DNA from: Yuukianura sp. NJ FZ-2021
Lineage: Eukaryota
Direction of reading: 5' to 3'
DNA: 64,000 nt
NCBI GenBank assembly: GCA_046563655.1
Contig: CM102287.1
Location: forward strand, 3,782,001 to 3,846,000
The position numbers were made by a program, and so were the translations under genes. Positions 1-35,921 of this stretch are shown here, piece after piece (the first letter of the stretch is position 1; each line of letters starts with the position of its first letter). The notes under the pieces were generated by a model that saw only the letters and a list, made by a program, of their open reading frames with translations, was not told the DNA's origin and ran no database searches.

Positions 1-2190
1 ACATTGAAAATTTCTTGTTTTGATTCCTTAAATAAGGGCTGCTTGAGAAGTGATTAAGGGGTGGGTACTTTTGTGAGTCCTTCCAGAAAATTGGTAGGTT
101 CAGAACTGGCTTGTTTGTGTTTCTGGAGTGAAGCCGACAGCATTTTAAAAATTTCAAAACCGCCCATTTCTGAGTCACAACAAGAACATTTTAGTGCAGC
201 ACCCTTAAGTCCCCCTGCTTTTTCAATATTCCGGCTGCTTTTGAATTTTGAAAAGTCAAGTCCTGATTACAGTGATCCCTGTGACACTGACACAAGGAAG
301 TTGTGACTTAAGGGCCCCTTTCATGTTTTCAAACATTTCAAAAACGGCGTTTTCACAAAATCTTTGTCATCTTACCATTTTTCAAAAAAAATCTAAGGGC
401 CCCCGTCTCCCAAGAGTTGCATCATTAGAAATACATTCCGTTTTTCTTAGAAAATGTCCCAAATGTGTCGTTTACACAAGGAGACAGGTGACCCTTAAGC
501 CTTAAGGGCTCCCTTGGGTGGCAGGAGAGAATACAAAACAAATTTTTTTTTTTCGAAAAAAAAACGAAATTTTTGTTTTAGGATTTTTTCTTGTCTTCTG
601 AATTTGAATCTCCTGTTGGCGTTGAAAAATTGGACAACTTTGGACGGATTAAGGGACGGGGGCCCTTGAAATAGAAAAAGCTTTCCCCTCCAGTTTTGCG
701 ATTAGTGCTGCAATAATTGCAGTTGTTTTTTGGTTTTTATTGCAGAAAGTGTCAAGTTCTGGGGAAGAATAAAGTAAGGCAGAGGATTAGTGAGGATTTG
801 TTAGGCTGTTTGGTTTGACTTTTTTGTGGTTGTTGGGCACCTATTGTGTCCAGAGACCCTTAAAGGGCCCAGGGCACCCTCGACGTGTGTGGTCTTCATA
901 ATACTTGCCTCATCCTCATCATCATGTTAGGGCTAACATTATGTTTCGGCAGGAGATCAAGTCAGGAAGATACCCGCTGTTCACCCTCCCTCCCCGCAGG
1001 ATCCCTTAAGTCCCCCTGCACCCAGAGCAGCTCCATGGATAACACACCCAGAAAATAAGAAAAATCCATTAGAAATGTCCATTGTAAGGCTCAACAACGC
1101 AACAACACGGACACTGAAATCCAATCTCTCTAAGGGATGCGAGGGAAGGGCCCTTGGTGCATGATAAAGGGCCCCCTTCACTTCAGCCTCCATTTTGAAA
1201 TTTTGAAAGTAAGATTTTTCGGTGCACCAAAACTAAAAATTCGGTTTACTTCTCCCGAATGTTTTCCGTTTTATACTGGAAGTGAATAGGAAATCCAAAA
1301 ACTTCAAGTTTTACAAACTTTTCCAAGGTTTTTGAAAAATGCTTTCAAAGATTTTTTTAAAACAGGCAAATTTTGATTGATATTTTTTTTAAATTTTACA
1401 GACTAAGAGCTAGAGAAAACTTTTGGAGTGAACTAATTTGCCTACTGAAATAATTACGAAATTTTTGAATGGTTTTTATGTTGTGCCTGTTATGACTCTA
1501 TGCTGACACCTCATTGTGCTGTTGATCTCATAAACAAAAAATGTAAAGTGGTCTTCGTGTGTGGTCTTCACAAAAAACACTCACAAAAAACACTGAAAAA
1601 AACACCAAAAAAAACACTTCAAAGTCAAACGAACTTTTATATCCTTTCGTTACTTCTTATGTTTTTAGAAAAAGAAAGTTCTCGCTCACTTCACAATTTC
1701 TGCATGTTCATGATTATTTCCAATTTCGAAAACATCAAACAAATTAAAAAAAAAAACTGCAGTTAACAAATTTTTGGAAATCGTTTTCTTTTGTTTTTTT
1801 TTAAGCAAAGAAACTTTTTTGTTAATCTTCTAAAGTGTTTCAATGCACTTAACTTTTTTCTAAATTTTCTTCCTGAGTCTAAGAAAAAACAGTTTTTTGT
1901 CTGGCGTTTACTTTCAACAGTGACCTTTCAAAATTTCCAAACTAAATTCTACACGAAGCATGGACCCTCATGGCTCAAAGCACCCTGACGTAGTTCCAGA
2001 ATTTGAAAATGGCTGCCAAGGGCCCCCTGCCCTGCAGGGCTCCTTCCTAATGACTTGTCTGCGATATAGAAAAGATGATGAGGCATAAAGTTGTCTTGTT
2101 CAAGGGAAAAGTCTATGGAAAAAGGGAGGAGAACACAACAGACTCACCTGTAATTACCCATTTCTAAAAAACATAAAATCAAAAACATTA

Positions 2191-2532
2191 CAGCACATTC
2201 TTGCACGGACATCTACGCACCGGAACTACGTCGGAAAAATTTTATGGACCGAAGACCCCAAGAATTTAGGTAGAAAATTTGTCTATTTAACTAGCATTTA
2301 GCGTTAATACAAATTTTAAAAAGCTAAAAATGTAGTAGAACAATGTGTCTGTTTAACAAGCAGAATTCCAAATTCCAAAAAGCTAAAAATTTAATAGGAA
2401 AATGTCTCTGTTTAACAAGCAGAATTCCAAATTTCAAAAACTAAAAAAATTAAGTAGGAAAATTTATCTTTCTAACTAGCAGAATTCCAAATTTAAAATT
2501 CGATGCATGAGTGTCCGTGCAGAAGTGGCCTG
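2191..2532. mobile_element. Non-autonomous foldback/MITE-like element with imperfect TIRs enclosing a ~60-bp tandem array
   Basis: Left end cagcacattcttgcacggacatctacgcaccgg matches the reverse complement of the right end, caggccacttctgcacggacactcatgcatcg. The interior (~2260-2500) has about 4 copies of a ~60-bp unit (gtctgtttaacaagcagaattccaaattccaaaaagctaaaaat...). No clear TSD. Confidence 0.55.
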
Positions 2533-5500
2533 TTGCGGAATAGGACGCACGAAGATGAAGATGAGGAAGATGCGATGTGTAACCATGGAGAATTGAAAAA
2601 GAAAATGGCATCTTCCAAGTAATTTCCTAAAGTGGTTTTCATCTTCCAAAAAGCCAAGCCCAGTCTTCTTTTATGTTCCTGTTTTCAAGTGGTTGTGATT
2701 GGACTTCAAAATGCTGCAGCACTTGAAAATTGTACTTGAAAAAAGCTACAGTTGAAAGCACTAGTTGAAAAGAGTGGATTTGCAGTAAGGTAGGAATGCT
2801 GTGGATTCCTTTGTTGTTTTTCCATTGTTCTTGTACCTGTTGATGACTTGATTACAACTAATAATTTTATTATCTCACCTCATCTCTATCAACGCACAAC
2901 TTAACTACACCATCATTACAACAAATTCCAAACACTGAAAAAAACGTGTTTTTTTGAAACTTGCAAACTCAAAAAACGTGTTTTTTGCAATTTAAAACCA
3001 AGTCGACGTCTCTCTTTTAGCTGCTTTTCTGCAATAAGGGAAGAATATTGCCATTCAGAACTAGTTAAGAAATTAACTTTTCTCAAAATTTTCAAATTTC
3101 ATTTCGTTTCCGAATTTTGGTTTTGAAATTTCGAAGTAGTATTCAGCTCAATATAGGAGTATTATGGAGGGTATTGAACTAAAGTCAATTGCTACATCTT
3201 TAGCAATTTTTCTGAGAAATTAGTACTGTGAAAAAAACTAATTTTATTAGAAATTAGTACGGTAGAGAGTGGCTCTTTTTTCTACAAAATTTTTCAAAAT
3301 TGAACTAAAAACGAGCCCAATCTTTTCTACAGAATCTGAAATTCAGCAGAAATTTTTTCACCAAAATATAAACAGATTTTAAAATGAACGATTGGGTAAA
3401 CTGATTTCAAAGTTTATTTTCAAGAATTGGAAATTTTTTAGGAACGAATGTTTCCGTTTTTTTTACTTCTTTTTTCTTTTCGTTTTTTTTTGAAAAAAAT
3501 GGATTAGTTTTTATTTGAGAAGATAGTTCCATTTAAGGAAGAGGGGAGGAAGAGACTTTGAAATTAATTGTTCCTGCTTCCTTTTAATAAGTTGCTTCGT
3601 AATGATGCTTTAATTAAAAGTTCCTCCACTACAAAAATTTCCCCCTCTTTTCAACTTTTCCCGCTCTTTTCAAATTTTTCAACTAATTTACGAATGTTCT
3701 ACGCTCAGGAATGTCTGTTCTAAAAAGTGTCATTTCCCTCCCCCTTTGTTCAAACATTCACTTCACTTGAAATTTAAAAAAAAAAGTTTAACAGAAATAT
3801 TTTTAACTTCAGGTCGTTGAATGTTAATTTTGCATCAATTTTCAGAAAAGCTAGAAAAAAAAGTACTAAACAGTTGAGTCTAAACTGTTTTTTTAAGAAA
3901 AGTCTTTAGAAATTGAAATTACTAAAAGGAAACAAAAATGTAGTACAAAAATTAATGTTTTTTTTTCTGTCATTTCTTCATTTTTGACCAAAAACTATAT
4001 GACCAAAAAAAATATGAGCAAAAAAGTGACTTTTTCAACCTTGTCAGGTACCGTCCAACATTGACATGTCACCTACCCTATGTTATAGACATGTTAAGGT
4101 ATGTCCATGTCCCATGTGTCAAAAAACATGTCAAGTGTCATGTCCCATCAAATATGGTCAACTGTGACATGTCCATATTCCGCCTGAGATCTGTCATTAC
4201 ATTTTGATCTTGTTAAACTTGTCCGAAAAGTCAAAAAGTTAACTTTTTGTTCAAAAGCGTCAAAAGTCAAACTCAAAGTGACCGACGACTGTCATTCACT
4301 TTCAAATTCCTCAAACTGTAAAACCATTTTCAGAATTTATCTTTTTCCAAAAACGTGTTTTTGAAAAAGGTAAATTTTGGAAAAGGAAAGTTTCCCACTA
4401 TCAGTAGGGGACTTTGGTAATGAGCGATTGACAACCTTTTAAGGGCCCCCAAACAATGGGACACTGGATGACACACTAAAAAATTTGTCGCTCCTGCTAA
4501 GTCTCCAAAGTTTGTTCAAAGGGCCACCTAGGTATTGGGAGTAAAGGGCCCCCTCCCCACAAGGGGAAGGGGAGGGGGCCCTCAGGAGTTGACGAAAACA
4601 ATGGGATGATAATAAACCACAGAGAGATCACAACAGGACCAAGGGATCCTGTGTCCACTTGGTACTCCACCTCTTTCCCACGACGCCAAGAGGGGACCCC
4701 TTGAAGGGCCCCCCACTCAAGAATGTCCACTGGATGATTATCATCACGATTTGAGTTGTCTCCAGAGTCCCATTACTTGTGGCCAAGGATCCAAATATGG
4801 CCAAGGACCAAAGTGGGCCCTTATAAATCCTTCATGTTTGAAAATTCAAAAAAATAGTTCCCGGGCACCCTTAAAAGTCAGAGATCTAATCTAGGTGAGT
4901 TTATGGCCCTGTACATGACCAGCTACTTTAAGCTGACTTCTGACCTCACAAATTTGAAAAAAAAAATTCAAAATTCAAAATTTCGAAAACAATTTTTTTT
5001 TCAAAATGCTAAAAAGTTTGTCTAATTCAATCATGCTCCAAAAATTTCCGACCTAATACACCGATTTTGAAAATTTTTTTCCGAAAAATACTTTTTTTCT
5101 GAACTGACGTTCTTGTTCTAAATTTTTACAAAATGCAAAACAGAGATGACGGACGTCGGGGTGTGAACTTGTGTTTAAAAATCTTTACTCTTTTTCAAAA
5201 TTTTGGTAATTTTTAGAACAGACTTTTTCTAACAAAGGGCCCAAACAGCTTCGCAGCTCACCGCGGTGGCGTCCCTTAGACTTTTTCTTTCGCAAAAGTC
5301 AAAAAGTCAAAACACGAAAGGTAAACGTCGGGGGAGCCCTTAAAGGTGTTTAAGGGTCCCGTTGTTGATCCTACTTAAGTCAAAGAACGTCTCAAAATAT
5401 TTTCTAAACAGAACCTTTTCCAAAAACTTTTTTTGAAAAAGTCCGCACCCATTTTACCTTGGTTTGTATTTTGTTTACACCGTGTCATAATTCACTCCAA

Positions 5501-7624
5501 AAGAAAAGACTAGTGGACGTGGCCCATCATTGCTCCGGTTTCTGTGTCATCCTACTGTTAACTATTGAGAAGGGGTACTCTGGGGGGCCCTTAAGGGTCA
5601 CCGGAGCCCTTAAAGTTTCTGCTTAGAAGTAACCATAAGTTTCTCCCTAGACACCCATCATCTTCCCAAATGATCTTCATAATGACAGTCCTAAATTCTG
5701 AGAAAATCTCACCCATTCCGTCTTTTATTGACGGTGGACGGAGAATGTTTGTGTCCATTGTCCATGCCGTCCTTTTGTGTCCATGTCGGACAGTTTTTGT
5801 GTCCAAGTTTTATGTCCAGGTGAGTCTCATTAAGACTCACCTCATTACCCTCATCAATCACACTTCCAACCAAAACAGTTTAAGCAGTTTAGCACTCACA
5901 TTATTCCAACTTTTACAATTCCCAAATGTTATGACTCTCCCACGACCTGTTTTCAGCATTCAAAATTTCAAAAAAAAATCGTTTCTCTTAGATGAGAGAG
6001 ATACACAAGGTCAAAGGTCATCCCCACCTACGTGTCAGTCACTGTTAAAATCCAAACCATTTAGAAGAAAACAAAACTTTCAAAAAAGTCAGTTTTTGTC
6101 AAAAAAAAATATTTCTTTATGAAAATCAATCTTGAAGAATGGCTAACGAAAAATTGAGACCTGAGTGTAGCGTTTCATAAGTTAAGCGGATTTGAAAAAA
6201 AATGTGACGACGTTTGTCCCAGTTTCAAAAGCTTCGTTCGGATCAATAAAAAGTTGCAATGGGGTTAGTCAACCAAAACAAAAATCCAACACTTTTTTAA
6301 ACAGAACTTCTAAAAAATCAATTTCAAACAAGAATTGAAATCGTCTTGGACTTAAAAAATTCAATTTCCTTTTTGAAAAAAAAATGTAAGCCTTGCAGTT
6401 GTCAAATCTCTTTTCAAAAATGCCCACTGAACAGAAAATTTTGAATCAAACCCCGTTGCATTTCTAAACAAACTTCCTATTTGAACAGAAACACTTTTTG
6501 AAAATCTTGTTTAAAGAAAAAGAACACCGTACTTCAACATTTCATTTTCAAATTTTAATGGTTGCCCGCAAACAAAATCAATTTTAGCGCCACCTTAAAG
6601 GTTAGAGAAAAATTGACACGGAAATTTTGAAAAAAACGAAAGTTACGAATGATTCTTTGGCCTTGTGTCGCTCGCGGTTGTGTTGCATCCGCATCCGAAT
6701 TATGAATGTTTTCAACTTTTTCTGGAAGTATTGTTGACATTTTGGCTTTAAATAAGTTAACAAATTAACATTTTATATTTTTTGGAAAGTGGTTACTATA
6801 TTTATGAAATTGGACCACCATGAATTCAATTTATAAAAATTAGGCACTACGTTTAGCAACCTATAATCAGAGCCCTTCGATCTAGCAATTATTCAATTCA
6901 CTTGGGATTACTTCCGTTTTAACTCCAAAACGTGACATCCCTTCAACGTTCAAGGGCCCCCTTTGTTTCAAAACCTAAAGGCCCTCAGTCAATTTCCTTC
7001 AATTTTTGTACTAAGATGCAGCCGTTACTGCAACAATTACTGCAGGGGGCCCTTAATTCCAAATTGTTTCATTGAACAATTGAAATCGTGTTTCAATTTT
7101 CAACTATTTTACAGAACCTAACATCCTAATTTGATAATCATACAAATTAACTAACCTTTCCCACTAATTGAAATTGAACAATTATCAAAATTTGGAAAAT
7201 TTCAATTTTGATCAACTTTTTTTCAAAGTGAAATTGAAGGACTGCAGCCAAGGAGCAGGAAACGAGGGGGCCCTTAACGTTTCAGTTCAAATCCGTCACT
7301 TCCTGTGATAATCCTCGTCTTCCTTTTTCCATTTCAAAAGGAACTGAAAACCGTTCCGATTGATTGAATTTTTGGTTGTTCTCACCATTGATGAAAATAA
7401 TACCCGAATCCGGGTAACATATTTTATATTCAAACTGAATCCAGGGTGGATCCGAATTTAAACACAAAGCCACGCCCACAAATCATAAATTTTGGAAAAA
7501 CTGCTGCACCCGATGAGTTTTGATTGTTGTTTGGCCAAAAACGAAACAACAATGGCTCTTGGACAAAAAAGAAAAAGTTCATTTGAGAAATTAACCATCT
7601 GTCAGAGGAGGGTTACTTGTACTA

Positions 7625-7696
7625 ATGGTGGTAACCATCACTGATGGTAACCATCGACGGTGGTAACCATCACCGGTGGTTACCGTAACCATCGTT
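7625..7696. repeat. Short tandem array of the quasi-palindrome (GAT/GGT)GGTAACCATC
   Basis: GTAACCATC occurs 4 times in ~70 bp, including the hairpin gatggt-a-accatc. Confidence 0.8.
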
Positions 7697-9113
7697 AGGA
7701 GAAAACAGATAAGCTGTGGTGGGGCGGCGGAAAATAAAATTTTATGAAATTTACAGACTGATTTGCTTTTTAGACGGTTGAAAAAAGGGAAATTTTGAAA
7801 AATTTTGCCAATACATTTCAGTAGTTTCCTTAAGGTGATATCCTGTATTTAAAGGATTTGGACAATTTTTGAATTTCTTAAAATTTTGAAATTTGAAATT
7901 TGAAAAATTTTCAATTTGGGAAAATTTTGAACTTGGAAAAGTTGATGTTGATGAGTAAGTTCCTGAAGGAAACGAATTAATAATCCCGCTGATTGCCTAC
8001 ATCTCTACATCACGTTTTTTTTTCTTTGTACATGAAATGATCATTTCCATGTCTGAGTTATGACCTTTGGTCATGCAAGTAATGAACAGCTTGTTTTTCA
8101 AGCCAAGGGCCCCCTGGAATTTTCAAAAAACAAGTTTTCATAAAAAGTTTTTAGGCCCTTGGATTCCGTAGAGTGGACTTGAGGCAGAAGGGAGTCCATT
8201 TTGAAAGTGGACTTGAGCCAATGAGAATAAGGGGTCCTAACATGTAGACTCCAAGGCTCTCTGTTCATCTGTTACGAAGAACACAAAGGAACAGTAATTA
8301 AGGGATATCCGAAGGGAGCCTTCAAGGCTCCCCTCATACGTACGTGCTCCGCCGCTTGATTTTTGGTTTCAAATTTTCCCTCCAGGAAATTTCAGGATGG
8401 ATGACTCTGTTTTTACTTTTGAATTTGAAAACTTATTACGAAAGTCCCCTAAGGGCTCGTCCGAAATTGATACCTTCCCCCTCCCACCCCTTTTCCAGTC
8501 ATCATCATCAACTTCAGCACACAAAAAAACAAAAAAACAAAAAAAAAAACAAATTTAAAATATGAAAAAAAAATTAAAAAATTTGAATTTCCGAATTTCG
8601 AAATCTAAATTTTCAAAATTCGCCTTTTAATATCAACAACGCAACGTCCGAGACACCTACAACCTACAAAGTTTTGAAGTTTGAGAGAAATTCTTTTTAA
8701 AATTTCTGGCTGGTGGGTGACATAACTTTTCAAAGAAAAAAAAGTTTTTGAAAAGATGTTGTGCATCCCTGAGCGTTTTCTAAGGGTCCCTTGGGTGCTT
8801 GGAAGGGAGCCCTTGGTTGATGGTCCTAAGTCCCTGGCAGCTGTTACATGATCTTATGATTAGGCTAGGTTTAAGGGCCCAAATGGAGTGGGAAAACAAA
8901 GGGGCCCTTCCATTTTGAATTTTGAAGTCCCCACCCAAGGGTCCCCCTGTCGTAATAAAGAAGACTTGTGAAGTCTCTTCTGACAAGGGAAGATGAGTTA
9001 CTGCTCTCTCCCTTGGACGGATACGGCCATTTACCATCGCTTTTTAAAGTGCTTATTATGAAGACATACCACCACAGTAATAACATAACTCTCTCTACAT
9101 GCAATGGAAACCA

Positions 9114-10456: not shown

Positions 10457-12356
10457 ATGCACCTTGTCACGCGTCCAAGCATGTTGACCTTGACGGTAGA
10501 ACGACTCGTGGGGTCAAGTGGAACTGATAGTGGACATGACAGGATGTCAATGTCACCCGAATCTAGTGACATCGGCAGCGAATCTTCCCGAAGTCCGGTG
10601 ACACAATCCGGAACTTCACCTTCGTCAACTCATCACTTCACTTCACACAAGATCTCTCTACTTCTAAACAGCGACAAACCAACCGATAGGTCACCGGGGT
10701 CATCCCCTGACCTCGAATCGTCGTCAAGGCAACTAAATTTTAGCCGTGACGATGACAACCACAGTCCCTGTGTCGTTCCTGGTCAAAGGTCACCCGTTAG
10801 TGACAGTGGACAACCCGCCCCGGGCGAAGTCCAAAACCAAATGAACTTTGAAACTGAAAGTACCGTCAGACCTACTGCGATTCCTGTCCAGGATGAACAC
10901 GGATCTGAGCAGAGTAGACTTATGGATGGTGACAATTGTAACAACAATGGTGGCAACAGTGACAATGGTGGCAACAATGGTGACAACGACAGACCACCGT
11001 CAGGAGCCAGCGGTGGATCTTCCACCTGGAGCAGTAGTTGGGGGGGCCCTTATTCAGTAGCCTCATGTTCATCAAATCACAACACATCTCATAATAACTC
11101 AAACAGCAACAACATAACTCATAACTCATCATCGAAACACCTCAAGTTCTCAATCCAGAACATCCTGCGAGCGGACTTTGGTCAACGACAACGTCCAAGG
11201 GCCCCCGTCCCTCAGTCATTGTACTCTCCGAACAATAGTGACAATGACAGGGGTCGTGTGACCGAAAGACCACAAAAGAGACACCACAGTCCACGCAACA
11301 TCTCAGAAGACTCAAACAGTTCTTGTGCCAGCAGCAGTCGCAGGGAGGAGGTCGTCGATGAGTCCAAAGTCAATCCAGAAGTACCCAAAGGGCCCCTGCT
11401 CTGGCCCGCTTGGGTCTACTGCACTCGATACTCCGACAGACCTTCATCAGGTAACCCCACTTTTTCAAAAAACTGAAATTTTAAAAAAGTTTTCAAAATT
11501 TCACCCCATGTCCCTTACAAGGCCCTCACTTCACCCTTTGCTCGTTGTTCCGACTAATTTCTATTTTGCTAAGCATAAGCTTGCAGTTAGAAGCAAAAGC
11601 TTCTTCAGGATTTTGGGATTTCAATTAGGAAAACACGTTTTTTTCAATTTTTAAATTTTTCTGACAATTTTGATTGATTTGGTCATAAATTTGTAGTTAG
11701 GCGAGAAGATGCGATTTTGTGATACGAATCTTGAATGTTGATAATAAGATTAATCGAGACCAATAACTGTCAGCTTACTGTGCTAAGATGTTAATCGACT
11801 TGTTCAGAGGTGTTCAAACTTAAGTGGTTTTTGGTCTAATCTGACTTGTGATAGATTTGACCTCGATTTGTCCAAAGGTCAAAGGTCAAATGCTTAACTT
11901 TCTCTTAATTTCTTGGTTTTCAGGGCCAAGGTCAAGGAGAGTTCGAAAGAAATCGGAAAATTCAAGGGCTCCGGCGGAAGCTGTTTCTTCCGTTTCCGAT
12001 GAAAAACGACCGAGAACTGCGTTTACTGCTGAGCAATTGGGGAAATTAAAGCAGGAATTTGAGGAAAACCGATACTTGACTGAAAAACGACGACAAGATT
12101 TGGCCCGTGACCTCAAATTACATGAAAACCAGATCAAAATTTGGTTTCAGGTGAGGAGAACAGCAGATTTTTTAAATTTTTGAAAATTTTCAAAGAAATT
12201 TTCATTTTTGGTTTGAATTTTTAGAACAAGCGAGCGAAACTGAAAAAGTCGTCGGGGCAGCGCGGCGGCCTGGCATTGCAATTGATGGCTCAGGGACTCT
12301 ACAATCACTCGACGGTGCCAATGGACGAAGATGAGGAAGACTACTTACCGTGCTGA
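10457..12356 (+). CDS. en: Engrailed-family homeodomain transcription factor (engrailed-like paralog, no RS microexon), 3 coding exons, ~450 aa
   Basis: Exons 10457-11450, 11924-12150 and 12225-12356 with GT-AG introns give an intact frame. Motifs: EH1 [11 protein letters not shown]2 [21 protein letters not shown], homeodomain [60 protein letters not shown]5 [15 protein letters not shown]. The start could be 10457 or 10481. Confidence 0.95.
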
Positions 12357-13195: not shown

Positions 13196-13244
13196 GGAGG
13201 GAGTAACTACTAAATTTTGGAGGGAGTAACTACTGAATTTTGGA
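13196..13244. repeat. 2 x 23-bp tandem repeat carrying the dispersed GGAGGGAGTAACTA motif
   Basis: ggagggagtaactactaaatttt followed by ggagggagtaactactgaatttt. Confidence 0.85.
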
Positions 13245-15383
13245 GTGAAAGTGCTATATAAAGTGAAAGTTAATAAAGAAAGCAAAAGCTAATAGAGAAA
13301 TCCCCACAACCAATTTTCTCTCAAATGGAATCGTGAGATTAGTTGGTTCCTTTTTTCGGAAGGAAGTTTCAAAATTGCCAAAAATTTTATCACCTTTGAC
13401 CCAGACGAAGGGCAGAAGGAGAAAGGAAAGAACTTTCCTAATTTTCCAATCCATTTCACAATGATTTTTGGTGGAAGTGATGACTTTCTCCAAAGAAAAT
13501 TTTCCAGAATTTAGTTTCTCCCGCGAACACGATCATCCTGATACTTTTGAAATTGTTCCGTTCAAAATGCATGAACATGCTCAGCGGGAAAAACATAACA
13601 CGACTTTTAATGTTCCTTTTTCGTGTCTGTTTTGAAGATATGGATTTAATGGATTTGTTTACCCTACCAAAAGGAAACAAATTTTCACCAACTTTCACCC
13701 TCCCCTTACATTCATGTTTTCATGTTTCAAAATTTAAAAAAAAATTGTATCTTTTGAAATTTTATTTCGTATTTTCATGATTCTGAAGTGCGCACGGAGT
13801 GTAAATACTGCAACTGTGAAGTGAAAGTAAAATTTTGGTACTCAACTTAATCGAAAGTTTTGAGTGGCGGAAAGCCGGCTTTTTCATCAGAATTTCGGAT
13901 TCCTGATTTTTGTCTGCGACAACAGACTGTGCGATGTGTTTTTTCCGCGGAAAAATGTTGAGGAAGAAAAAAAAATGAAGAAAGCGTTTTAAAATTGGCC
14001 TGTTTTTGTAATGAGGGTCAACTTCACCAACTTTTTTATTTTGAAAAACTTTGTTTTAAATTTTTTGAGTTTTTTAATTTAGAAAAACATGTTTGGAGTG
14101 GAATGTGGTGATTGGGAGGCAGTTGAGGTCTCGTTTGAAGTGAGTGGTGTTGGTTGTTGTGTGGATAATGGAACAAGATCACTTACCGACAGACACGAGT
14201 GAAGAAGAGGGGGACTTAAGGGACCTCACACGAAGACACTCACACAAAAAACACACAAAAGTCAAGATGTGGCTTTAAGAAGACACTCATTTGTCAGGCA
14301 CTGTGACACTAATGCTGCTGCGCACCGCTCAAGAGGCGCCCTTCATCCGCACCCCAGCGGTCCTTAAGGGCTCCCGCTCCAAAATTATTAGTTTAAACAC
14401 TCCCATATTCACTTTCAAGCACTTAAACGTCAAAATTTTAGTCAAATTTTTCGCACTTTACTAGGCGAAACGCCGCCACAACTTTTCTGGAATATTCATC
14501 ACCTAAATTTTTCTTTGAACTTCAGTTCTGCATTGCGGACAAGCTCAAATTTTAAAAATTTCCAAAAAATTTTTTCGAATTTTCGTTTTCAAAGGTCAGT
14601 GACATGCAAATGTGATTCAGGTCAATGACCTTTGGACCTCCCCCCGTTTCTCAGAACTGTCTACACTATTTATCACTTTTTCTTTTTCTGTGACCTGTCA
14701 CCCCAGCTTTTTTTTTAATTGCTCTTTCCGGGGCTCGTGCCTTTCTCTTTCTCTCCGTGGAATGTTTCATAATGCTCCGAATTCTTAAATTACCCGGGTA
14801 GCTTAGAGTCCCGGGTTTTCAGTGGCTTAATTAGGTGTCATGTTCTCCCTCTGTCTACCATTGAACTCCAATTAGTTCCACTCTTTCTCCTCACACCATC
14901 CCAAAAACAAACACAAAGTGAAAATGAATCCCACTTTATTTGACACTTCCACAACACAATGACAGTAATTGTACTTTTTCTCTTCTTTTCAAACTCTGTT
15001 CTAAATTTTAATTTTCTAAACACTCTTTCAACTAATTGTTTAAGAAAAACGAAAGGGTGAGGAGAACAATAAAAAAAATGGGGATGGGTTAGGAACTAAG
15101 CCTTCAGTTTTCTAAACAAAGACAAATTTTTACTCTAATTCTTGACTTTTCAACTCTAAATCGAAACTAAAGCGATTAGGTTAATGTTAGCTTACGATTT
15201 TTTAAGATAAGCAATTAATAGTTTAGTTAACTATAACATTGTGTTAAGTATGATTAAAGTTAACTAAGATTAGGTTTTAGGTGAGGCGTTGATGGAGCCT
15301 TTTGGTAGTGATTTTAATACTGTTCGAATTTGATTTCGGTGGGACTGGAAAAAAATTGCATTTTTTGAAAATTTTCGAATTTT

Positions 15384-18300: not shown

Positions 18301-21300
18301 AAAATTTTCCAAGATATGTTTGAGGCAACTTTCTCCGGTTTTATTAGCTTCCATCTCTGTTTGAATAGTGTTAGTTTTTCCTTTTTTTTTAAAGTTATTA
18401 GTATTAGTGAGGCCCGGGTTTTTGGCGGGTTTTAGCTTTCAAAAACCCGGGTTTTGTGTTTTGGCGGTAGTATTTGCTTGGAAGTGGGTGTGTTTAATTA
18501 ATGGTTTTAAGAAAATGGTGAATTATGAATGAGTGTTATAACCCCTCCTTTCCCTGGTGTGTAATTTCCTCTGGCACTGCAGAAACTCTGTAATTGAAAT
18601 ATGGAACACTCCGTGGCAGAGGGAGTAACTAACTATTAAATTTTAACCCCTTTTTTCTTCTGTGCAGAAATTAATTGTTATTTGACCAAAACCTAATCTA
18701 AAACTAAGTTAAACCTAACAACCTAACTTCCAATTGATTAAGATTAACGGTTTACTCTCAACCAAAAGTAGATCAAATCCAATCCCGACCACGCCCAACC
18801 TTACGCACGAACTTTGACAAAAAATGAACGCAAAGCTTCCTGCCAAAAATTTTGCTTCCCGTTACATTTCAAGGTTTTTGATTCAAAATTCAAAAACTAA
18901 AAAAAAACATCCTCAAAAAATAATTTTCAAATAAAATCCTGTCACTTTGATGCATGTTTTGTGACATGGATGAAGTGTAATGTTAAGGGTCCCTTTGTCC
19001 CTTAAGGGCACGCCCTATGTTACCTTGTTTGGGGTCTAATTTGTTTCAATTAGATTTCGAAAGGACTTCAGAGCAACTTTGTTTTACTTACTTCTTCCTG
19101 GAATCAACAGAACAAAAAACACAACATCAAAATTCATTACAAATTCAGGGTCTTAATTACTACAAGTTAATTAACACTTTTAATTAATTAACTTATTAAA
19201 ATTAAAAGCTGAGGGAACCAGAATCTAAGAAAACTTAAAAAGATTGAATTCACCCCACAACTTTTTGTGTTCGGCGTGGAAATTTATAGCACTTTCACTT
19301 TGTTTCAAAAATTTGCTTTCACCATTCACAACTTGACTTGCAACATCCATTTTTTTTCTAGCAGGTCACATTGACCTTTCATGTCATTGACCTTTCATGA
19401 GGTCATTGACCTTTGTCCAGCGGAGGTCAATGACCTTACACCTTCAGCACTAAACAGAAGCTGGCAGAAGGTGTTTTGCAGAAGAGTTGTGCTGGCGATT
19501 GGGCTAATTAAGTTGAGTTAGGATGTTCTTTGTAGGTGGCAACTTTATAATTACTTGTTCTTCCGTGCCTTTTGGACATACATGGCACTTCTACAGCATG
19601 TTCAACTTTTTTAAAGCAAGAATTTTAAAAAAAGTTGTTTTGCCATTTAAAACAAGGATTGGGTTGCAGACGGACCACGCTGTACAAAATATTAACATGA
19701 AAACGGCAGATGATACTCTTGAGGAAGTGTAAAAACAGGAACAATTTATTCAACAAAAGTTGTTAAGGTTGGTATCTAATCTTAAGTGTTGAAATTAATG
19801 GAGAAACAGTAATAATTATTTATAATATATTATAATACATTACAAATAATTGTCGAAGAATAACTTATTAATTGAATATCACTTCTGATTCAATTGGAAA
19901 TGGCTCTGAGGCTACTGCAGTCTAAAGAAAAAAAGTAAATGAAGATCTCTTCTTATCTGTTGCATCTCCAGCAACAGGTTTTTAGTAAAGTCATAAAAAA
20001 GTTGATCTTTTAGCAAATTCTTGTTCAATTAAAAGATTAACGGCACGAAAAAAGTTGAAACTGAAATTGATAACTCAAGTAGGAAAAAATTCAAAATTGA
20101 ATTTCAAGCCTTTTTAAAAGTACAAAACTAATTTTTCTCTATTAAAATTTTATTGTCTCGTTTTTAGTTTTTATTTTGTGTTTGAATCCTCCGGTTTCAA
20201 AATTTTTTCTAAAGTTTAAGTAAGAAGTGAATCATTTGGTAAGGTAGCGCGTTTCTTTGCAGGCAGAATTTTGATCTTTGCGAATTCTGAATTTCAATTT
20301 TGTAAATTTTAAATCTTTCATTTCCATAGTTTGGAATTTTTGAATTTTGCATGAATTTTAGTTTTTGCAGTGACGAAACACCATTCAAAAATGGCACTGT
20401 TTCTTCTGAGAGCAAACTTTTCCAAATCTGAACTAGTTAATTAACATCTGACTCTTAGAACGTGGAGATTATGGAGTTATTCACTTATTCAGCCCATAAT
20501 TTTTGAAATGGAAGTTTGAATTTCGAAATTTTATGAGGTTTTCAAAAACTATTCAGTTTGTAAAGTGATGTTTGAGGTTTTTCAATATTTTGACAAGGCA
20601 GAAAAAGGGAGAGCAGACAACAATTGAACAAACGCTACTGCTTGAGTGGCCCATTTGAAACCCGCTGCTGCAACTCCAATTTTTTTTTTCAAAATCTTGT
20701 TTTTTTTTTTTCGTTTTCTAAAAAAAAATTTTTTTTGAGTTTGTGCCTCAACAATTGTACCACAAACCGAAATTTTAAACTTGATTCCACAATTGAGAAA
20801 AATTAGAAGAAAATTTAAAAATCTCGTAGACTTTTATTTCAGTCTAACCCTTAACTTTGTCATGTTTCGTTAAAATCTGCGTGTTTCGTTCTCGTTTTTG
20901 CAGATTTCAAAGAGGAAATGCTGTCAGTGTGCTAAAAGTGAGCCCTTCATGGAGTACCCTCTTTGACTGTTGACTTTGTGGGCCCTTAAGGGTCTTGAGC
21001 TGACAATTATGAATGAGAGTGTATGTTATTGTGACGTGCATGGAATGTCTCTATTAAGTTTAAGCCACACAAGTGGAAATGGTTGCGGTTTGACGGGTTT
21101 CGGACAGCCGGACTCCTGGACCCCACCTGAACACATCCACCTTCCAACATCATCCACTTCCTCTCCCTACAACTTACAAAACGCACTTCAAAATGTCATA
21201 ATATGCACTAAAAACTGCACAAACACAAAAATATGCATAAGTTTCTGCTCAATTTAAGCACAAAAGTGACAAAAGTTGCACAAAAACCGGCAAAAAGTGC

Positions 21301-24300
21301 TCAAGAACCAAAATATTCCTAAATTAATCCAATTATTCGGTTTGGAATTTCGAAATCTAAGCAAAGTGCTAAAATGTGTACAAAAATTCGTGCGAATTTT
21401 AGCACATCGTCGAAAGTTCGCAAGCACAATCAACATGCGAAGCTTACAAAATTTATAAAATTTGCACAAAACTTTATTCCAACTATCAAAACATGGACAA
21501 AATCCACGAGTTGTCAAAAAACTTTTCAAAATGGCACAAAAATTTGTTAGTACTTCAGCAAGATTTGGAAAAAATCTCTCCCAAGGTTTTCAATTTTGAA
21601 AAAAAAAATTTAACGAAAAACGGAGAAATGTGGAGCAGAAAAGCTGAGGTTTCAATTTCAAAAACTGGTTTTTATTTGAGCAAATTGAATCATATGTAAT
21701 TGATCTTTTGTTGTTATATAGAAAACCTCGGTGGCTCAAAAAGTTGTGTAGTTAATTGAATAATTTCGTTTTGTGTAAAAATTCATTTGAAGTAATTTTT
21801 CCTTCTGAAAGTTGAATTGGTCATTTGGAATGAAAAGAAGAAAGGTCATTCAACGAGGTCATAAATCATGTGGATCTGACAGTCCCCGTCCCAACTCCAC
21901 TTCTTTTGTCATCTCTCCACAAAACCTAATGCACGTTTCTCATTCCTCAATTCATTTTCAAACATTTTGCAAAAATCTCGTTTTTTCAAAAGCTCCTTCC
22001 AAACGAGAGTTGAATTTTTAATTTTTTGAAAAAGTTGGTTTAAAATTTGCCCTCAAGCAGAGACACGTTCTGGATGATGTTCTACTTTGGAGGTGAAGGA
22101 ACTCTGCTGTTGCAGTCAGGAGCCCTTTAATCACCGACTGAGCCCTTGAAGGGCCCTTCAACCCCTTCAAAACATCTCAATCCTCAAGATCAACCTAACT
22201 TAAGTTAGTCTAATGCATGAAATAATCTAACAGACCCTTCAAGTACCCCCATGTCAATACAGGATTTATCCCTAAAGGACGCGGATGCAACTGCAAATAA
22301 GCGAAGTTAGCTAAATTATGAATGATTTTTTGCTGAGTGACGCAAAAATCATGAAAATTCGGTGTTTTTGCAACAAATTTTTGGCGAAATGTTTTGGATA
22401 AAATTTTGAAAAAATTTGCAATTTTTTTTGTGTTGTGGTTGTATTAATTAGAGTGTAGAATTTGTTGTAAAAAGTTGAAGTGGATTGGGAGTGTGTTAGT
22501 GTGTGTGTGGTCCTTTTGGACAAGAACTTCATCCAAGGCTAATAGTTACTCCCTCCGTTTTCCTAATGATTCACCGACTCCATCTCAACCCTCACCGACT
22601 TCATCAATAATCACTCCAACCTCAACAGTTTCAATTTCAAAAAATTTTGGTTCAAATTTCAAAATTTCGAAAACAATAACTTCCAAAAAACACTCAACAA
22701 TTTTACGTTGGAAGACAGGAGCGGACGACGGCCAAATCTAAGTCAGCAAATTATACGCAAACATTTGATGGTTTTTTGTCAAATGACGCTCAAGTTCTAC
22801 AAAATTTGAAAAAGTTGAGTTTTATTTTTGAATTTCAATTTAAAAAAGTCTTTTTTTTTAACTTAAAATGTTCATTGTTTTGAATTTTTTAAGTTTTAAA
22901 TTGAGACTTGTTTGAAATTTGAAATTACAGTGGAGTGTCTTCGCATGCCTCAATTCCTCCAAACTCCAAAGTCCCATTATCATTATTTTCCCACTGTCCA
23001 TGTCCCTGGAGTCTTCCATCTGGTCCCTTAAGGGCCCTGTTAGGCTAAGGGTACATCAGGTTAAGTTAAGGGTACACTGGATTCCCTTAAGGGCCCTCTG
23101 AGATGACACAAGAAGTTCCTCCAAGTGAGAGAAGTTCGTAAGTGATTGTATAATGAATGGAATCTGATCCAATTAAAAGGTGTAGCAGAGATCAGCATCT
23201 TCGGAGATCGTGATGGAATCAAGACTTTACTTCTGGGTCACATGACCTTGTTCCAAATTTAAAAAAAAAGTTTTCAAAATTTCTGTTTTTTGAAAATAGT
23301 ACCATGACTAAAAGAGTGATGAGTCAGAGATTGAAGGGGAGCAAATCCATGATGGAAGGTGAGAGTTAGTGTGAAGTGTGAAGAGAAATCAATGAAAGGT
23401 GAAAGCAGAGAGAAAACACTTTTCATGCTGCGCAGAACCCATGCTCAGTTGATTCAAAAATTTCCAAAATCTGAAATTTTGAGTTTTTTTTTTCATAATT
23501 TTGAGAAGAGCAGATGAAAGTGGATTAATTTTTGGTCTTTTGAATCCACTTCTTTTGAAGTTACAGAACATGACCCCTGGAGTGACCCCACACAAAGGTC
23601 AACTTTCAAAATCCGCAGTGAAGCAAAGGAGCCCTTGATATTCTGTTTGTTCATTTCAAAAATCATTCAATTCGGTGCGTTTTGACCAGAAGATTGAAGT
23701 GATAGGGGAGCCCTTAATCCCCAAGTCCCTATCTCTCTCAACATCAAAAAGTAACAATAAAGTCCACGGTTAGGTTATGTTTAGGGACTGAGGGCCGCTT
23801 GACTCTGCCCTTTCAAGGGCTCCTTTCCAAAAATGAACAATTTTTAAATCAACTCAACTTTCGCAACAATGATTTCCTTCAAAAAAGATCATCTCATGTC
23901 AAAACCTTTTTTAAAAAAACTTTTGAAAAAACGATCACGATGGGGCGCTGCTATACGCATGCGCAATGCCGACTCTCTCATGAATTTTTTGTTCAAACAA
24001 ATCGAAAACGCATTTTTGCTTTTTCAAAAATTTCAAGTTTGAACACTTCGAAGGCTTTATGAATCTACGATTTTTCAAAATTTTCATATTCAAATCGGTA
24101 GATCTTTCGTACGGCGTGAAAATCAGGAAATTCAGTCCCCGAAAATCGATTTAGAAAAAATCGGAATTTCCGATTTCCGAAGTAGGGTTTTCCGATTTTC
24201 CATTGAAAAATTACAGGAATTGATAAAAATCGTGTTCTTGGCGCGATTTTTTTTTGCGAGTTGAACACGATTTTTTGACGAGTTTTGAAATGTTGGCGTT

Positions 24301-27003
24301 TAAAAATTCTTGACGTGGAAAAACAAAAAATGGTCGATGCGTCCCTTTGTAAGCCCTTGATTACATATCCGAAAACACATCTCTCAACCTCTAAGTCCTA
24401 ACTAGGTCTATGTCTTAAAGGTTACGTTAACATAACATTTGAACCTGTGCGGTCGAAGGCATCAAGAGAAAAAGAAGGGGGACCCTTAAGTACCCTCATC
24501 TTTGACAAGCCGCTCAGCAACTCTTCAATCACTTTTGTATAACAAAACACAAGAGATAAGCCTTCAATTCCTTTTTCTCAAAAGTTGACCTTTGACATAT
24601 GTAACATGTAAATTTTAATTTGACCTTTGACATGCAAAACTTCCGGATTGAGTTCAAACTCTCTCAAAAGTTAATAAACTGGTGCGAGTTTTGGAAATTG
24701 AGTTTTTGCATGACTCAATGTCTATGGAAATAATTGGCAGTGGTGGTGGTCTGAATTATAGATCTCTAAATTTGAAACAACACGACGGGAATTATTACTT
24801 AATTTATAGCAACAGCTACACTACTCCGAGTCCAAGTTTTGAATTTTTTAGAACAAGTTTAGAACAAGGTTTTAGAATTTTCAAAATTTCTAGTCCCGGG
24901 TAATCTTGGCTGAGAATCAGAAACCGAAAAGTCTAAATTGAATATTCACTTTACTCAGACTTTCATGAAATGGCGTGTGGGCGTCAAAGTAATTTACTAC
25001 CCTTAATTAAGTCCATTACACTTTCTCCTGCCAAATTTCAAAATTTTAATTACTTTTTCAAAACGCAAATTCAAAATTTTGAAAAATGTTTCTAGTGTAT
25101 GCAGCGACAGGAACTTTGGAGGAAGCTCAGTTTTTTTCTGCACCGCGGCCGCTCTCATTTCATTTTTCTTTTAGAATTTCCCCGGCCCAGTAAAAAAAGT
25201 GACAAAAATTCAGAAGCACGAAGCTCCTTGGCGACACTGTCACCGATGTCGTCGTGTGCTACTGAATTATTCAACGGTCTCTGAAAGGAAAGTGACCGTG
25301 GAAAAGGATGAGACACCGTGGAGTGACACCGTGACGAAACCTAAATCAACTCAAACCGTTGATAGCTACTTCCTCCAACAATGTCTAAAAGGAATTGACT
25401 CCTGCGCCTTTTCGTGCTTCTGCATTTTAGCTTTACTTAATTTCTGTTTTAATTAACAACATTTTGAATTCTACCGCCACCGCCGCGGTGCAACGGTGAC
25501 AAAACAGCGGTGTTTTCAAGTAAAGCTTTCAAAGCAACGCCAATACGGCAAAAAAAAAATTCCCGTTTTTTTTTGAAAATTGGAAAGTTTTAACTTTCTG
25601 AAATTTTTGGTTATCATCTGAATCTGACCGTCGTTTAAAAAGATTCCAAAAATTCGGATCATGTTAGTAAAAATTTACTATATAGTTTCGTCGAGACAAC
25701 TGAATTATATATAGTAATCTTGAATTAAACTTTTGAAAACCTTCACTAAAAATAAATTTCGAAATTTTATGAATTGAAATTTCGATTTTACATTTTAAAA
25801 AAAAAATTTTAGTATGAATTTTTGAATTGACTTACCAGAAGAAGGGCGATCGCTGTAGCGCGTGCAGTAGACCCAAGCGGGCCAGTTCGGTTCGCCGCCA
25901 GCATCGTCTGACCCTACAGGTTTCGTCGTATCGTCACTCCCGTGACCTTTTGACCCCGATTTGACCCCGAGGTCACTTGAGGTCACGGGTGAAGTTGACC
26001 CCTTGCCATCTGCAGACTTCTCTTCATTTGACTTTGTTTTGGAAGTTACACTGCCCGGTAATTGTGGAAATGGCGGAGACCATTGATGGGGAACGCGGCG
26101 GTGGTGGCTCTGTTTCCGGTTGGTGGCTTTTGAGCCCTCATGTGGTGGTGGAGGGCGGGAGAGGTCAATGGGAATGACATGATCTGGTTTGAGCCGTTTC
26201 GGTAAGTGGTGATCTTGATTCGAAGATTCGGTAAATTTCCGTTTCGGTTTCGAAACCGGTATAGGATGGGAGTTATTAAAGTGAAAGTTTAAAGGTGGGG
26301 GTGGTGGTGGGACGGAGCCACTTTGGCTGGGGAGGGGCAACCGCCCGAGGCCAAAGTCCGGACGCAGTATATTTGCAATTGAAAATAGTAATGACGCTTG
26401 ATGGTGACGCTGCTGCTCTTGCTGAAAAGAGTTTCCACCAATCAGGGCATCGCTGAGGCTGCTTAAGGGATTGTAGGGGCCTGGAAGGCCCTTAAATGAA
26501 GCCGAATCTTCAGATGAGTAGTGTCGGTTCCGAGTTCCGGTTTCGGTCGGAGTCGAACTCCGAACGGAATGGGACGAAGACGGAGACGGACTATGACTGG
26601 CCGTTGTCATCGTAACGGTACTCATGGAATCGTCGACGTCAATTTCAGCGTCGGTTTCGTCTGCGTCGTTTTGACTTTGTGTCTCCAATGGACTGCTGAT
26701 GCTGACTCCGCCCCCTTCCTCAGTCGGAATGAAATTGCGAATTCCATGAAGCAGCATTTTGGAACTAAAATTTCCATTACCTGAGTCATTGTACAGAGTC
26801 ATGTCGCTGCGTGACCGTGGTTCGGCGGTGCGTCGACGCAGTGGATCTCTTCGTCCACCCAAACTGACGCTCATGAATGTCGCAAGTGGTTGCGTCGATT
26901 CTAAATTGAGGGAACTCAGAAGTCCGAAGGCGGGAAACTGGAGTTGGAGGGGACGCGGATGTTGAAGCTGCGAAAAAACGCTGAGTGACCCCAGAGGGCT
27001 CAT
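15384..27003 (-). CDS. inv: Engrailed-family homeodomain transcription factor (invected-like paralog with RS microexon), 5 coding exons, ~502 aa
   Basis: Minus-strand exons 27003-25836, 19097-19092 (microexon), 17051-16855, 15723-15654 and 15451-15384 total 1509 nt in frame. Motifs: EH1 [16 protein letters not shown]2 [17 protein letters not shown](RS)PR, homeodomain [60 protein letters not shown]5 [15 protein letters not shown]. The start codon is uncertain because downstream Mets exist. Confidence 0.93.
19092..19097 (-). CDS. inv: 6-nt microexon (GAAGAA) adding Arg-Ser to EH2 of the invected-like gene
   Basis: The minus strand reads ttttttgttctgttgattccag|GAAGAA|gtaagt: a strong acceptor and a perfect donor. 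Exon 1 ends in G and the next exon starts GT CCA, so splicing gives G|GA AGA A|GT CCA = Gly-Arg-Ser-Pro, the invected PSSGRSPR motif. Confidence 0.9.
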
Positions 27004-27809
27004 TACTCGGTGACCTTTGATCTTGAAATTTTTTGGAATTTTTGAAAGTTTAAACACCGGACATCACTTTTTCAAAATTTCAACGCTTTTCTGAAATTTC
27101 AACTTTAAAGTTGTCTTCCGTGATAAGGTGTTCTGGTCCTAAAATTTTATGGTGACTTTAAGGGCCCTTCAAGTCCTCGTTTTTGTCTTCACAGTTTTGT
27201 CAACAACTTTGTCACCAATTTGTCACTTTTTAGTAAAAGATTGACACAATTTCAAAATTTTGACAATCCGTGGCAAAATTTACGTAATTCGACTTGGATC
27301 GTTTTAAATTGTCACAGTTTTTCTACAAATTGCAAAAATTTGTTTTGAAATTGACAAAATTTGGTTTAAAATCGGCACATTTTTTCAAATTGCTCAAAAT
27401 TCTTGTACGTAATGACACAATTTAGTTCAAAAACAAGCAAAATTACTTCATTTACAAAATGTCACAGCTTGTAACTTTCTCCACTTTCACTCAACACAAC
27501 TTTCGGCTATTGTCACTGCAACTTTTTTTAAAAACTGAAGTTCCTCAGCTCGTAAGTGAGTCGGAGGGCCCTTAGCCGGTACTTAGGGGCCCTTAATGTC
27601 TCTCCTGAGTTAGGAGCAGCAGGAACTGTGCGATGAGTTCTAGCCAAAGTTCAATTACAGACTCCCCCTCTACTAACCTAATGTTTGTTCCATTTGGAAT
27701 TATTGCTTTTCTGGGCAGTGGAGGGGAGACACAAAGTTCTGAGGGACCAAACACTTTGACTTAGCTTCCTCTGCTGCAGTACTTTGCATCCTACGGACAT
27801 TTCGGCTAG

Positions 27810-27883
27810 CTCCGCCTCTCCATTCGGTCGCTCCGCCTCCTTCGTCCACCGTCGCCACCAACGGAATCGCTTGATACAAGTCG
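27810..27883 (-). promoter_or_regulatory. Upstream module of the inv-like gene: CGACTTGTATCAAG-N8-TTGGT-N12-CGAAGGAGGCGGAG plus a second GAGGCGGAG
   Basis: Paralogous match to 9844-9895. Lies ~810-880 bp 5' of the ATG. Confidence 0.65.
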
Positions 27884-31740: not shown

Positions 31741-31838
31741 AAATTTTCAAACAGGTCAACGCCAAAGGTCAACTTTTCAAACAGGTCAACGCCAAAGGTC
31801 AAATCTTCAAACAGGTCAACACCAAAAGGTCAACTTTT
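31741..31838. repeat. 3 x 30-bp minisatellite with six AGGTCA hexamers
   Basis: Unit ttcaaacaggtcaacgccaaaggtcaa(c/a)t(t/c) in three copies. Confidence 0.9.
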
Positions 31839-33702
31839 GTTGATGAAAAAGGCCAATTTTTGTTGCTAATTGCAGTTACATACTTGAGCAGGAAAGTCCT
31901 AATAGAACAATGGAAGCTTTTAGGCTAATTGCAACTTTTCAGTTATTTATCAATCAAGACTGTCAGCAGTTTCCCATCACGAACTAACTTTGTGCAGTTG
32001 GAAGTGTTAATTAGTTTGATTGTGATTTATACTAAGGTGAGTCAGGTATTTACCTCCAATTAACTACTAATAAACATAAACAATCAAACGCTTCCTCCTT
32101 TCACACGCTTTTTAGTCCTTATAGACAGTGCTATAAACAATTTACGGTCATTATGAACTTTTATGCTCATTTCCTCCACTTTTTAGCTCTTTCATTTCAT
32201 TTGCTCAAAAAAGTGACCAAATGATCGTGATTTTCAAAAAAATAAAATTGCCCTCATCACCATTTCAGTTTCTCATCAACTTGATCATTTCCTGGCATTG
32301 TTCAATCTCACTCAAGGGTGAGGATGATGAATTTTCAAAAAAAAAAAGTTCAAAAAAGAAGTGAAACAGAAAAGTAAAAATTTCAAAATTTTGAATTTTG
32401 AAATTTTCTTTCCCAAAATTTAACCAACGGAAGAGTACTATGTTTGCGGGAAAACTAAAGCCTTTTACAAGAACATAATTTAAAACCGGAATTTTATTTT
32501 CAAATGGAGGCGGAGCTATCCAAAGTTTACAAAATTAAAAAAAAAACTGCAACGCGCTTAGGTATGTATTATGTATTCAGACATGAATTCCAAATTTTGA
32601 ACTTCTTTTTGAAAAAAGTTGAAAAATTGAAAAAATGAAGGAACGAATTGGAGAGGGAATGATTTGGACGGATGATTTTGCTCTTCACTGACAGTAGACA
32701 TCTTATAAGATGATGATGAGCGTATTCTGTAGTGTGTTGCGTATCTCAATTGAATTCATTTCCATTGTTAGTTACTCCCTCCATTGTTACTCTTTTTTTC
32801 ACACAATCAAGGTGTTGATGACTGTTGGAAATCAGGGATTGGTTGTCTCACAATTTCAATTCTTATTTTCCCCTTGATGGAATGATGGAAATGACAAAAT
32901 GAATTTCCATTATAACTCCATTCCCTCTTGATTGCCATTCTCTATTGTTCTTTTCACACCTTCGCTACTTCACACCACCACCGCAATTTCAAAAAAAGTT
33001 AGAAAGAGATTTGGAAGAGAACAATGCAGTTGTTTTTGAATTTTACGATTAGAATTTCTAGCATTTTATTGACTGTTTAATTCCTAAGAGATAAAGGTGT
33101 GACATGGACATTAAGTGGATTCTTTAGTCAGTTTCAAACAAGAAACTGGACACGACTATTATAAGAGCGTGTCATGAACATTTTTGAATTTTTAAATTTT
33201 CCCGCTCTGCCTGTAATGCTTAAGTTAGTACTAAAATGGAGGATCGATGGGTGCAGCAGGGTGGCCTTGATGTCAGGATGATTTTTCATAGTCGCCCTTC
33301 CATGAACTAAAAACAGCGGGATACTACCAAGGGTATATTCTTAAGGGCCCCCAGGGCCCTTGGACTTTCAACAACTTTTTTCATTTCAAAATGCTAAACT
33401 TTGAAATTTTCAAAAAAGATTCAGCCAGCCACTGGCTGGCAGCCACTGGAAAAAAATTCTGGAAAAGGTTGTCTACTTTTGTGCAATATTCCTAAAGTTC
33501 CGCAGTAGATTGGGGTGATTGATTTACAAAGGGAACTCAATAACTGTGGTATGTGGTTAGTCGAATTGAGTAATTGAGTTGTGAGCGAGAGATTTCAAAA
33601 TTTTGAACTTTTTTTTTCAAAATTTGGAAACTTTTTGAAAAATAAAAAGTTTTTGGCATGACAACAACTATGGCGTCGTTGCAAAGTTTTTGTTGAGCGT
33701 TG

Positions 33703-33978: not shown

Positions 33979-35921
<1,943 letters not shown>

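Follow-up and report, generated by a model that had tools for sequence, protein, structure and literature searches.

Short words that mark developmental genes in one lineage are a known kind of signal, although among arthropods other than Drosophila few signals in the sequence are known that distinguish developmental genes. In Drosophila, the site clusters of Polycomb response elements (PREs) have engrailed and the Hox genes among their targets. The sites in these clusters belong to general factors, ADF1 and TRL among them, and the GAGA factor is an example of one factor that can serve both priming and Polycomb roles (PMC4009610, in the part accessible to us). Pioneer factors differ between arthropod lineages, with Zelda and its TAGteam sites in insects and fuchi in a spider (accessible part of PMC13312856). 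In Caenorhabditis, the paired m1m2 motifs of HIM-17 are found in the MITEs (miniature transposable elements with inverted repeats) CERP2 and CELE2 (accessible part of bioRxiv 10.1101/2022.01.21.477252). Here we describe a word built on AAGGG that surrounds two engrailed-family genes of the springtail Yuukianura sp. NJ FZ-2021, in a stretch of 64,000 nucleotides ("the window": GCA_046563655.1, contig CM102287.1, positions 3,782,001 to 3,846,000, forward strand). The word matches none of the known signals that we tested, and our evidence comes from one genome. A literature search, mostly outside subscription journals and without supplements, returned no description of it.

The word fills one half of the window and is missing from the other. 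We define the strict word as AAGGGCCC, count all words in the window on both strands, and call positions 1-33,400 the left and 33,401-64,000 the right part. The strict word occurs 34 times on the left and 0 times on the right, while 0.78 copies are expected on the left by an order-2 Markov model and 2.7 by an order-3 model. The P value of this split, 2.5e-10, is optimistic because the boundary was chosen by an earlier, sequence-only reading of this DNA. The same is seen for AAGGGNCCC (28 vs 0), TTAAGGG (43 vs 1), GGGCCC (32 vs 0) and AAGGG (145 vs 18), and 111 of the 114 broad matches lie left of 33.4 kb. For TTAAGGGCCC there are 12 copies in the left half against 0.27 expected from the genome rate. 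Between 47 and 64 kb we find neither the strict word nor TTAAGGG. Base composition was rejected as a cause, since GC content is alike (0.367 left, 0.376 right) and the control word GGGAA is flat (62 vs 56). Since the 40 kb upstream of the window hold no strict copy (and the last 2 kb no AAGGG), the marked stretch is about 33.3 kb long and closed on the left as well. It contains two convergent engrailed-family genes, which we confirmed and labelled paralogues A and B, between a glycosyltransferase gene and alpha-tubulin; the closest named relatives of the engrailed exon are those of Allacma and Orchesella. The copies are grouped in modules of up to 1 kb, with blank stretches within the marked domain. 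The sequence-only reading had listed many positions of the word and its near absence from 33.4-64 kb. All 21 of its coordinates that we inspected do carry the word or a variant, its four broad ranges (4440-4830, 6951-7055, 8780-8950 and 23022-23100) reappear as modules in our re-count, and the density is clearly not uniform over the window. The features along the window are as follows.

54-1177: motif module at which the marked domain begins on the left, with 19 broad matches; no AAGGG in the preceding 2 kb
2018-2045, plus strand: motif pair
4439-5612: two dense modules upstream of paralogue A, one with 8 and one with 10 broad matches
6870-8950: three modules with 6, 4 and 8 broad matches
10457-12356, plus strand: engrailed-family paralogue A with three exons, the first of which has strict words at 11044, 11197 and 11388
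14216-14373: module with 4 matches, between the 3' ends of the convergent engrailed genes
15400-27000 (both ends approximate), minus strand: engrailed-family paralogue B; broad words in exon 1 at 26462-26494
about 25834-27000, minus strand: exon 1 of paralogue B; its homeobox exon is at about 16853-17050
18983-24495: six modules in the long intron of paralogue B, with 5, 5, 5, 8, 4 and 3 matches
27158-27595: two modules upstream of paralogue B, 3 matches each
33341-33361: last copy, an inverted double site AAGGGCCC-N3-GGGCCCTT, laid out as in the foldback transposon described below
33705-33716, plus strand: one CTCF-like word, after the last copy and before the alpha-tubulin gene
33979-35921, plus strand: alpha-tubulin, first gene of a motif-free housekeeping cluster

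The CTCF-like word, named from what we take to be the CTCF consensus, is a possible right boundary of the marked domain; no such word was found in the 10 kb to the left of the domain. The last copy had been described as a perfect hairpin at 33343-33361. As DNA it is a real inverted pair, but its folding is no better than that of shuffled sequences (z -1.59) and, with no Rfam match either, an RNA-structure reading was rejected. A shared repeat around the window copies was likewise rejected, none being present among the largest repeat families shown.

To describe the word we compared 223 kb of DNA selected for it with 261 kb of background; since the rich set was picked in this way, the ratios give the shape of the word and not its significance. 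An unconstrained expectation-maximisation motif search collapsed to a pyrimidine-rich model and a seeded matrix was used in its place, so that the matrix densities at the training loci are circular. The matrix consensus is YTY-AAGGG-YYCYY with a nearly invariant core: TAAGGGCCC has 100 copies in rich DNA and 2 in background, its substitutions at the five AAGGG positions number 10, 5, 2, 2 and 4, and T is accepted at the next two (18 and 38). A second form, AAGTACCC, is raised near cores (AGTACCC, 27 near vs 9 far). Furthermore, the sites follow spacing rules. Inverted pairs peak at 5-8 and 12-14 bases. In tandem, 75 pairs fall at the 8 lags 9-12 and 19-22, compared with 54 at 14 others. Genome-wide we find 45 copies of the double site AAGGGCYC-N2-3-GRGCCCTT, one of them being the last copy in the window, and none of its reversed control. 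This paired-site grammar, and a foldback transposon that shares it, had been missed by the sequence-only reading.

The word also enters coding exons, as the sequence-only reading had noticed. In 14 stretches with 11.8 kb of coding DNA of marked genes we count 7 strict and 19 broad words, where synonymous recoding (1000 simulations) gives 0.3-0.4 and 4.7; 0 of the 1000 runs reached the observed value in either case. Nine comparison genes hold two strict words only, both in the gene at locus L039, itself a cluster locus (see below). The exonic word is thus built through codon choice and is not forced by the protein sequence.

Next, we asked where else in the genome (98.7 Mb; contigs labelled C1, C2 etc.) the word is found. 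TTAAGGGCCC has 803 matches, against 206 for its reversed control. The site list of contig C1 is complete, and 39 of its 98 sites fall in seven clusters that together span 49 kb. Developmental regulators flank six of the seven, namely fringe (by Pfam) and genes of the forkhead, bHLH, C2H2 zinc finger (hunchback-like), nuclear receptor and LIM homeobox types, the last five of which we take from their sequences to be FoxB, Hey, hunchback, Hr4 and Lim3. The gene at the seventh cluster (L039) has no homologue at E<=0.001. Among ten further clusters from C2, C3, C5 and C7, five are at a Wnt gene (presumably wingless-like), a Toll-type receptor, frizzled, a bHLH gene and a probable cubitus interruptus; since atlas and PDB searches with the latter locus (L107) gave no result, we take this label from a motif. 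Atlas searches did not yield a name for the L042 fragment.

Proximity was tested with 300 listed sites in three flank classes (100 each of 103, 114 and 107), circular shifts and a distance of 10 kb. Sites in foldback copies or in the window, those on C8 beyond 11.88 Mb and one class on C8 were left out of the count. Of the 80 homeobox loci on C2-C8, 16 have a site at this distance or closer, where 3.7 are expected (p=0.0003). The figures are 8 of 43 for bHLH loci (2.2 expected, p=0.0015), 3 of 14 for forkhead loci (0.7 expected, p=0.034) and 2 of 46 for ion-channel loci (2.2 expected). At hedgehog, which the earlier reader had named beforehand, 7 kb contain 11 broad words and 4 strict ones, the latter with P=0.0016. 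Twenty evenly spaced 10-kb stretches have a mean of 0.7 strict words and 15 of them have none; one, with 8 strict words, overlaps a cluster chosen earlier. None of 76 metagenome engrailed loci, many of them short, has more than one strict word. One metagenome locus of 10.5 kb with a springtail-type engrailed carries three AAGGGNYCC words, two of them palindromic, which faintly hints at a wider use of the word in springtails. The suggestion that this is a lineage-specific motif marking developmental domains is therefore supported by the genome-wide tests, hedgehog, the Wnt gene and the sparseness at the 76 engrailed loci of other animals.

Several known binding sites resemble the word. The Kruppel site is AAAGGGTTA. 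FruB binds GCCCTTT (accessible part of PMC3852243), the PLAG1 site GRGGC-N6-8-GGG (accessible part of PMC6262857) is exactly fitted by GGGGCCCTTAAGGG, and TAAGGG partly fits both the THAP consensus TXXGGGX(A/T) (accessible part of PMC10824691) and a THAP1 probe (accessible part of PMC4177242). In marked DNA the enrichment is 1.2x for THAP, 2.4x for Kruppel, 3.2x for FruB and 4.5x for PLAG, compared with about 37x for the strict word, so none of them explains it. The telo-box, a plant element of Polycomb repressive complex 2 (PRC2) that resembles the telomere repeat, was also rejected: C4 and C8 start with (TTAGG)n, and in the parts read of the other 8 of 10 contig ends there is no telomere repeat.

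The word is packed at patterning genes and in a transposon and rare near the ordinary genes that were checked, so it is probably a docking site that helps to control developmental genes. We are confident, though short of certain, that a protein reads it, and the candidate reader is probably a zinc-finger protein. We give an even chance to a more specific reading, in which the word is the putative binding site of a lineage-specific, multimerising chromatin factor that primes enhancers in the manner of Zelda or the GAGA factor. A sequence-specific dimerising or multimerising chromatin protein would bind the word; once bound, it would open or prime embryonic enhancers of segmentation and cell-fate genes, as Zelda and the GAGA factor do in flies, and the word would thus act through activation. 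The foldback transposon may retain paired sites to exploit this host factor. What we observe is that the consensus is narrow, that the sites form homotypic clusters of 100-1000 bp, that their inverted and helically phased spacings are fixed, that they concentrate at patterning genes and that they enter exons via synonymous codons. A core this narrow, such spacing rules and the genes concerned would fit a protein that binds one helix face as a dimer or multimer.

The likeness to Zelda/TAGteam and fuchi is that one lineage-specific word is concentrated at early patterning genes (accessible part of PMC13312856), and as for Zelda we see homotypic clusters at such genes, also in exons. The springtail word differs in its sequence and in its paired, phased sites. 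CAGGTAG is not enriched in marked DNA (0.13 vs 0.31 per 10 kb), and TAGteam words are not raised at en/inv (1.8 per 10 kb) or at the hunchback-like gene (1.5), compared with 2.3.

Some observations speak against the priming reading. Hedgehog has 5 TAGteam-type words in 7 kb, so that Zelda-type input may exist. The bHLH and forkhead test sets contain loci that were first found as clusters, and the 3-kb surroundings of 20 forkhead matches hold no strict word. Most listed strict sites are more than 10 kb away from the families tested, the near ones being 18 of 221 for homeobox, 15 of 263 for bHLH and 3 of 263 for forkhead loci. Finally, four of the ten clusters on C2, C3, C5 and C7 have no identifiable gene, and one, with few words, adjoins non-developmental genes.

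Given its strength, the word gives a ready map of enhancers or PREs for a basal hexapod, predicts further patterning genes such as the L039 orphan, and could serve as a pull-down bait for its factor. A lineage change in Polycomb or pioneer targeting with constant target genes, and transposons as suppliers or borrowers of sites, become testable.

The alternative that survives best, though we find it rather doubtful, is that the word is a Polycomb-recruiting element, as had been proposed for it: the factor would nucleate PRC1 and PRC2 over developmental domains, and the transposon would carry the word because it is silenced in this way. The marked genes belong to classes that are Polycomb targets in flies, and the domain has sharp edges on both sides, with the CTCF-like word at the right one. 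As in fly PREs, where sites of ADF1, TRL and other general factors are grouped (accessible part of PMC4009610), homotypic clusters lie in developmental domains. The Hox genes speak both ways, being enriched but weakly marked. In the Hox interval, of which 110 of about 390 kb were sampled in eleven stretches, there are 16 strict words; two stretches with non-Hox genes hold none, and the other nine have 16 in 90 kb, where 190 kb of random DNA contain 6 (p=1e-4, with both sets trimmed post hoc). This is 1.8 strict words per 10 kb, about 5-fold over background, while the hunchback-like gene has 7.5 and en/inv 10.2, about 30-fold over background. The density in the Hox stretches is some five times below that of en/inv. 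Nor is any fly PRE word clearly co-enriched: for Pho, GAF, Zeste, Spps and Combgap words, in the consensus forms that we presume, the ratios to random DNA are 0.8-1.3 (per 10 kb, Pho 2.95 vs 3.76, Zeste 11.0 vs 10.3, GAGAG 21.2 vs 16.7), and Spps and GTGTG words are not clearly raised. About 19 modules in 33 kb would, moreover, resemble enhancers more than focal PREs. We favour priming over Polycomb recruitment because the modules are many and dispersed, segmentation genes are marked above Hox genes, and neither PRE nor TAGteam words are raised at en/inv.

A bolder reading, which we regard as decidedly speculative, is that a new master chromatin factor, possibly derived from a transposase, replaced Zelda- or PRE-type input at segmentation and cell-fate genes, with the foldback family keeping the paired site. 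If true, the persistence of this site in the transposons would be a traceable origin of a genome-wide developmental code.

The foldback family was reached via pairs of sites about 345 bases apart. Its copies are palindromic and 0.95-2.2 kb long, and they have 5'-CAG ends (in other subfamilies, GAG) and arms of about 470 bp, of which 28 matches were found; all five paired copies with intact CAG ends have a 4-bp target duplication. The family thus fits a non-autonomous DNA transposon with long terminal inverted repeats and target-site duplication. Some of the copies that carry the word sit among housekeeping genes. No autonomous partner of the family was found. The superfamily may be Sola or Academ, which we take only from end rules that we presume. 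The accessible part of PMC4455052 contains no such rule.

One could suppose that the word was originally a site in the terminal repeats of this family, or one bound by its transposase, and is now read by a domesticated THAP-like domain related to transposases, the host modules being ancient co-opted elements. Each 950-base copy has 7-8 strict words, AAGGG columns are 76.5% identical among five subfamily representatives compared with 56.6% elsewhere (though words may anchor this alignment), and host and element both have the 13-bp inverted pair and the 20-21-bp tandem. There are 21 THAP matches in the genome, and TAAGGG fits part of the THAP sites given above. HIM-17 is a precedent, with a paired motif common to a non-autonomous inverted-repeat element and host regulatory DNA; the Caenorhabditis promoters, however, match the MITE consensus and serve germline genes (accessible part of bioRxiv 10.1101/2022.01.21.477252), whereas the springtail host modules lack the element body and lie around patterning genes. 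We consider such an origin unlikely. Beyond the motif, no host match to the element was found: blastn of the arms against the window gave no match, the best profile hit in the window (E=0.077) covers only the word-rich part, and one cluster elsewhere (L109) matches the profile at E=3.6e-4 by its double site. Judged by their letters, the en/inv copies are not recognisable transposon relics. The element accounts for only 20 of the 300 listed sites and, in our count, for 12 of the 45 double sites, and the exonic copies come from codon choice, not insertion. The word departs from the THAP consensus: the first T is variable, XX is fixed as AA, the last position is mostly C, and the generic pattern has 25.7 against 21.6 matches per 10 kb. 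None of the THAP matches falls within a mapped copy, and the stretches read yielded no transposase. TTAA-type transposon ends were rejected as well, because the window copies share no body and the word sits inside the foldback arms, not at their ends.

Very unlikely, in our view, is that there is no specific reader and that (AAGGG CCCTT)n, a unit of five purines and five pyrimidines in which TTAA and GGCC lie half a turn apart, is under selection because it bends and so positions nucleosomes. The rules of nucleosome positioning agree with a phasing of 10 bp and with blocks that alternate between A/T and G/C, but no phasing is seen beyond about 22 bases (3.54 in phase vs 3.33 out of phase at lags 28-150), and equivalent shapes are unused, given the flat GGGAA control and a core that tolerates almost no substitution.

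The mutational signature that had also been proposed is the least probable of all: a neutral, domain-restricted mutation or repair bias, of which we know no example, would give the similar density of exons (7 in 11.8 kb) and surrounding DNA (191 in 223 kb), but the word comes in modules that leave parts of the domain blank, its core is invariant, it obeys spacing rules, and it is conserved in transposon copies among housekeeping genes.

Some further observations concern the loci described above. The L039 cluster, one of the densest, lies beside a 640-codon low-complexity frame (L039:1594-3516, C1 near 9.174 Mb), a candidate novel developmental gene. The foldback loci L057-L059, L063, L056 and L104 (e.g. 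G000:C7:5898894-5899844) carry a conserved word, GCCATTTTGG, which we take from its presumed consensus to be of YY1/Pho type. A 256-codon frame with a coiled coil directly adjoins a foldback arm at L102:6360-7127 (minus strand); it has no informative Pfam match, and its Cys/His pattern is presumably BED-finger-like. The Hox cluster (G000:C5:7.89-8.27 Mb) looks rearranged: on the plus strand there are four homeoboxes, of which we take the first to be Dfd-like and the next Hox3-like, and these are followed by non-Hox genes near 7.97-8.01 Mb and then by Scr-like to posterior Hox genes on the minus strand, which suggests an inverted anterior block. L016 and L024 (G000:C3:2956026-2956453) are two neighbouring Antp-class homeoboxes that do not belong to the Hox cluster; they are divergent, and their third helix is altered. 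The same homeodomain piece occurs at L013 and L014 (G000:C5:10441137 and 10712720), 270 kb apart and in opposite orientation, either as a recent duplication or as an assembly duplicate. Besides the AAGGG word, a second word, GGGAGTAACTA, recurs in the window, at positions 13196-13235, 18618, 22543, 30708, 32768 and 47931; GAGTAACTA is present 5 times in the left half and 2 times in the right. This second word includes AGTAAC, which is the FruA word, and is similar to the foldback family's GAG-type end.

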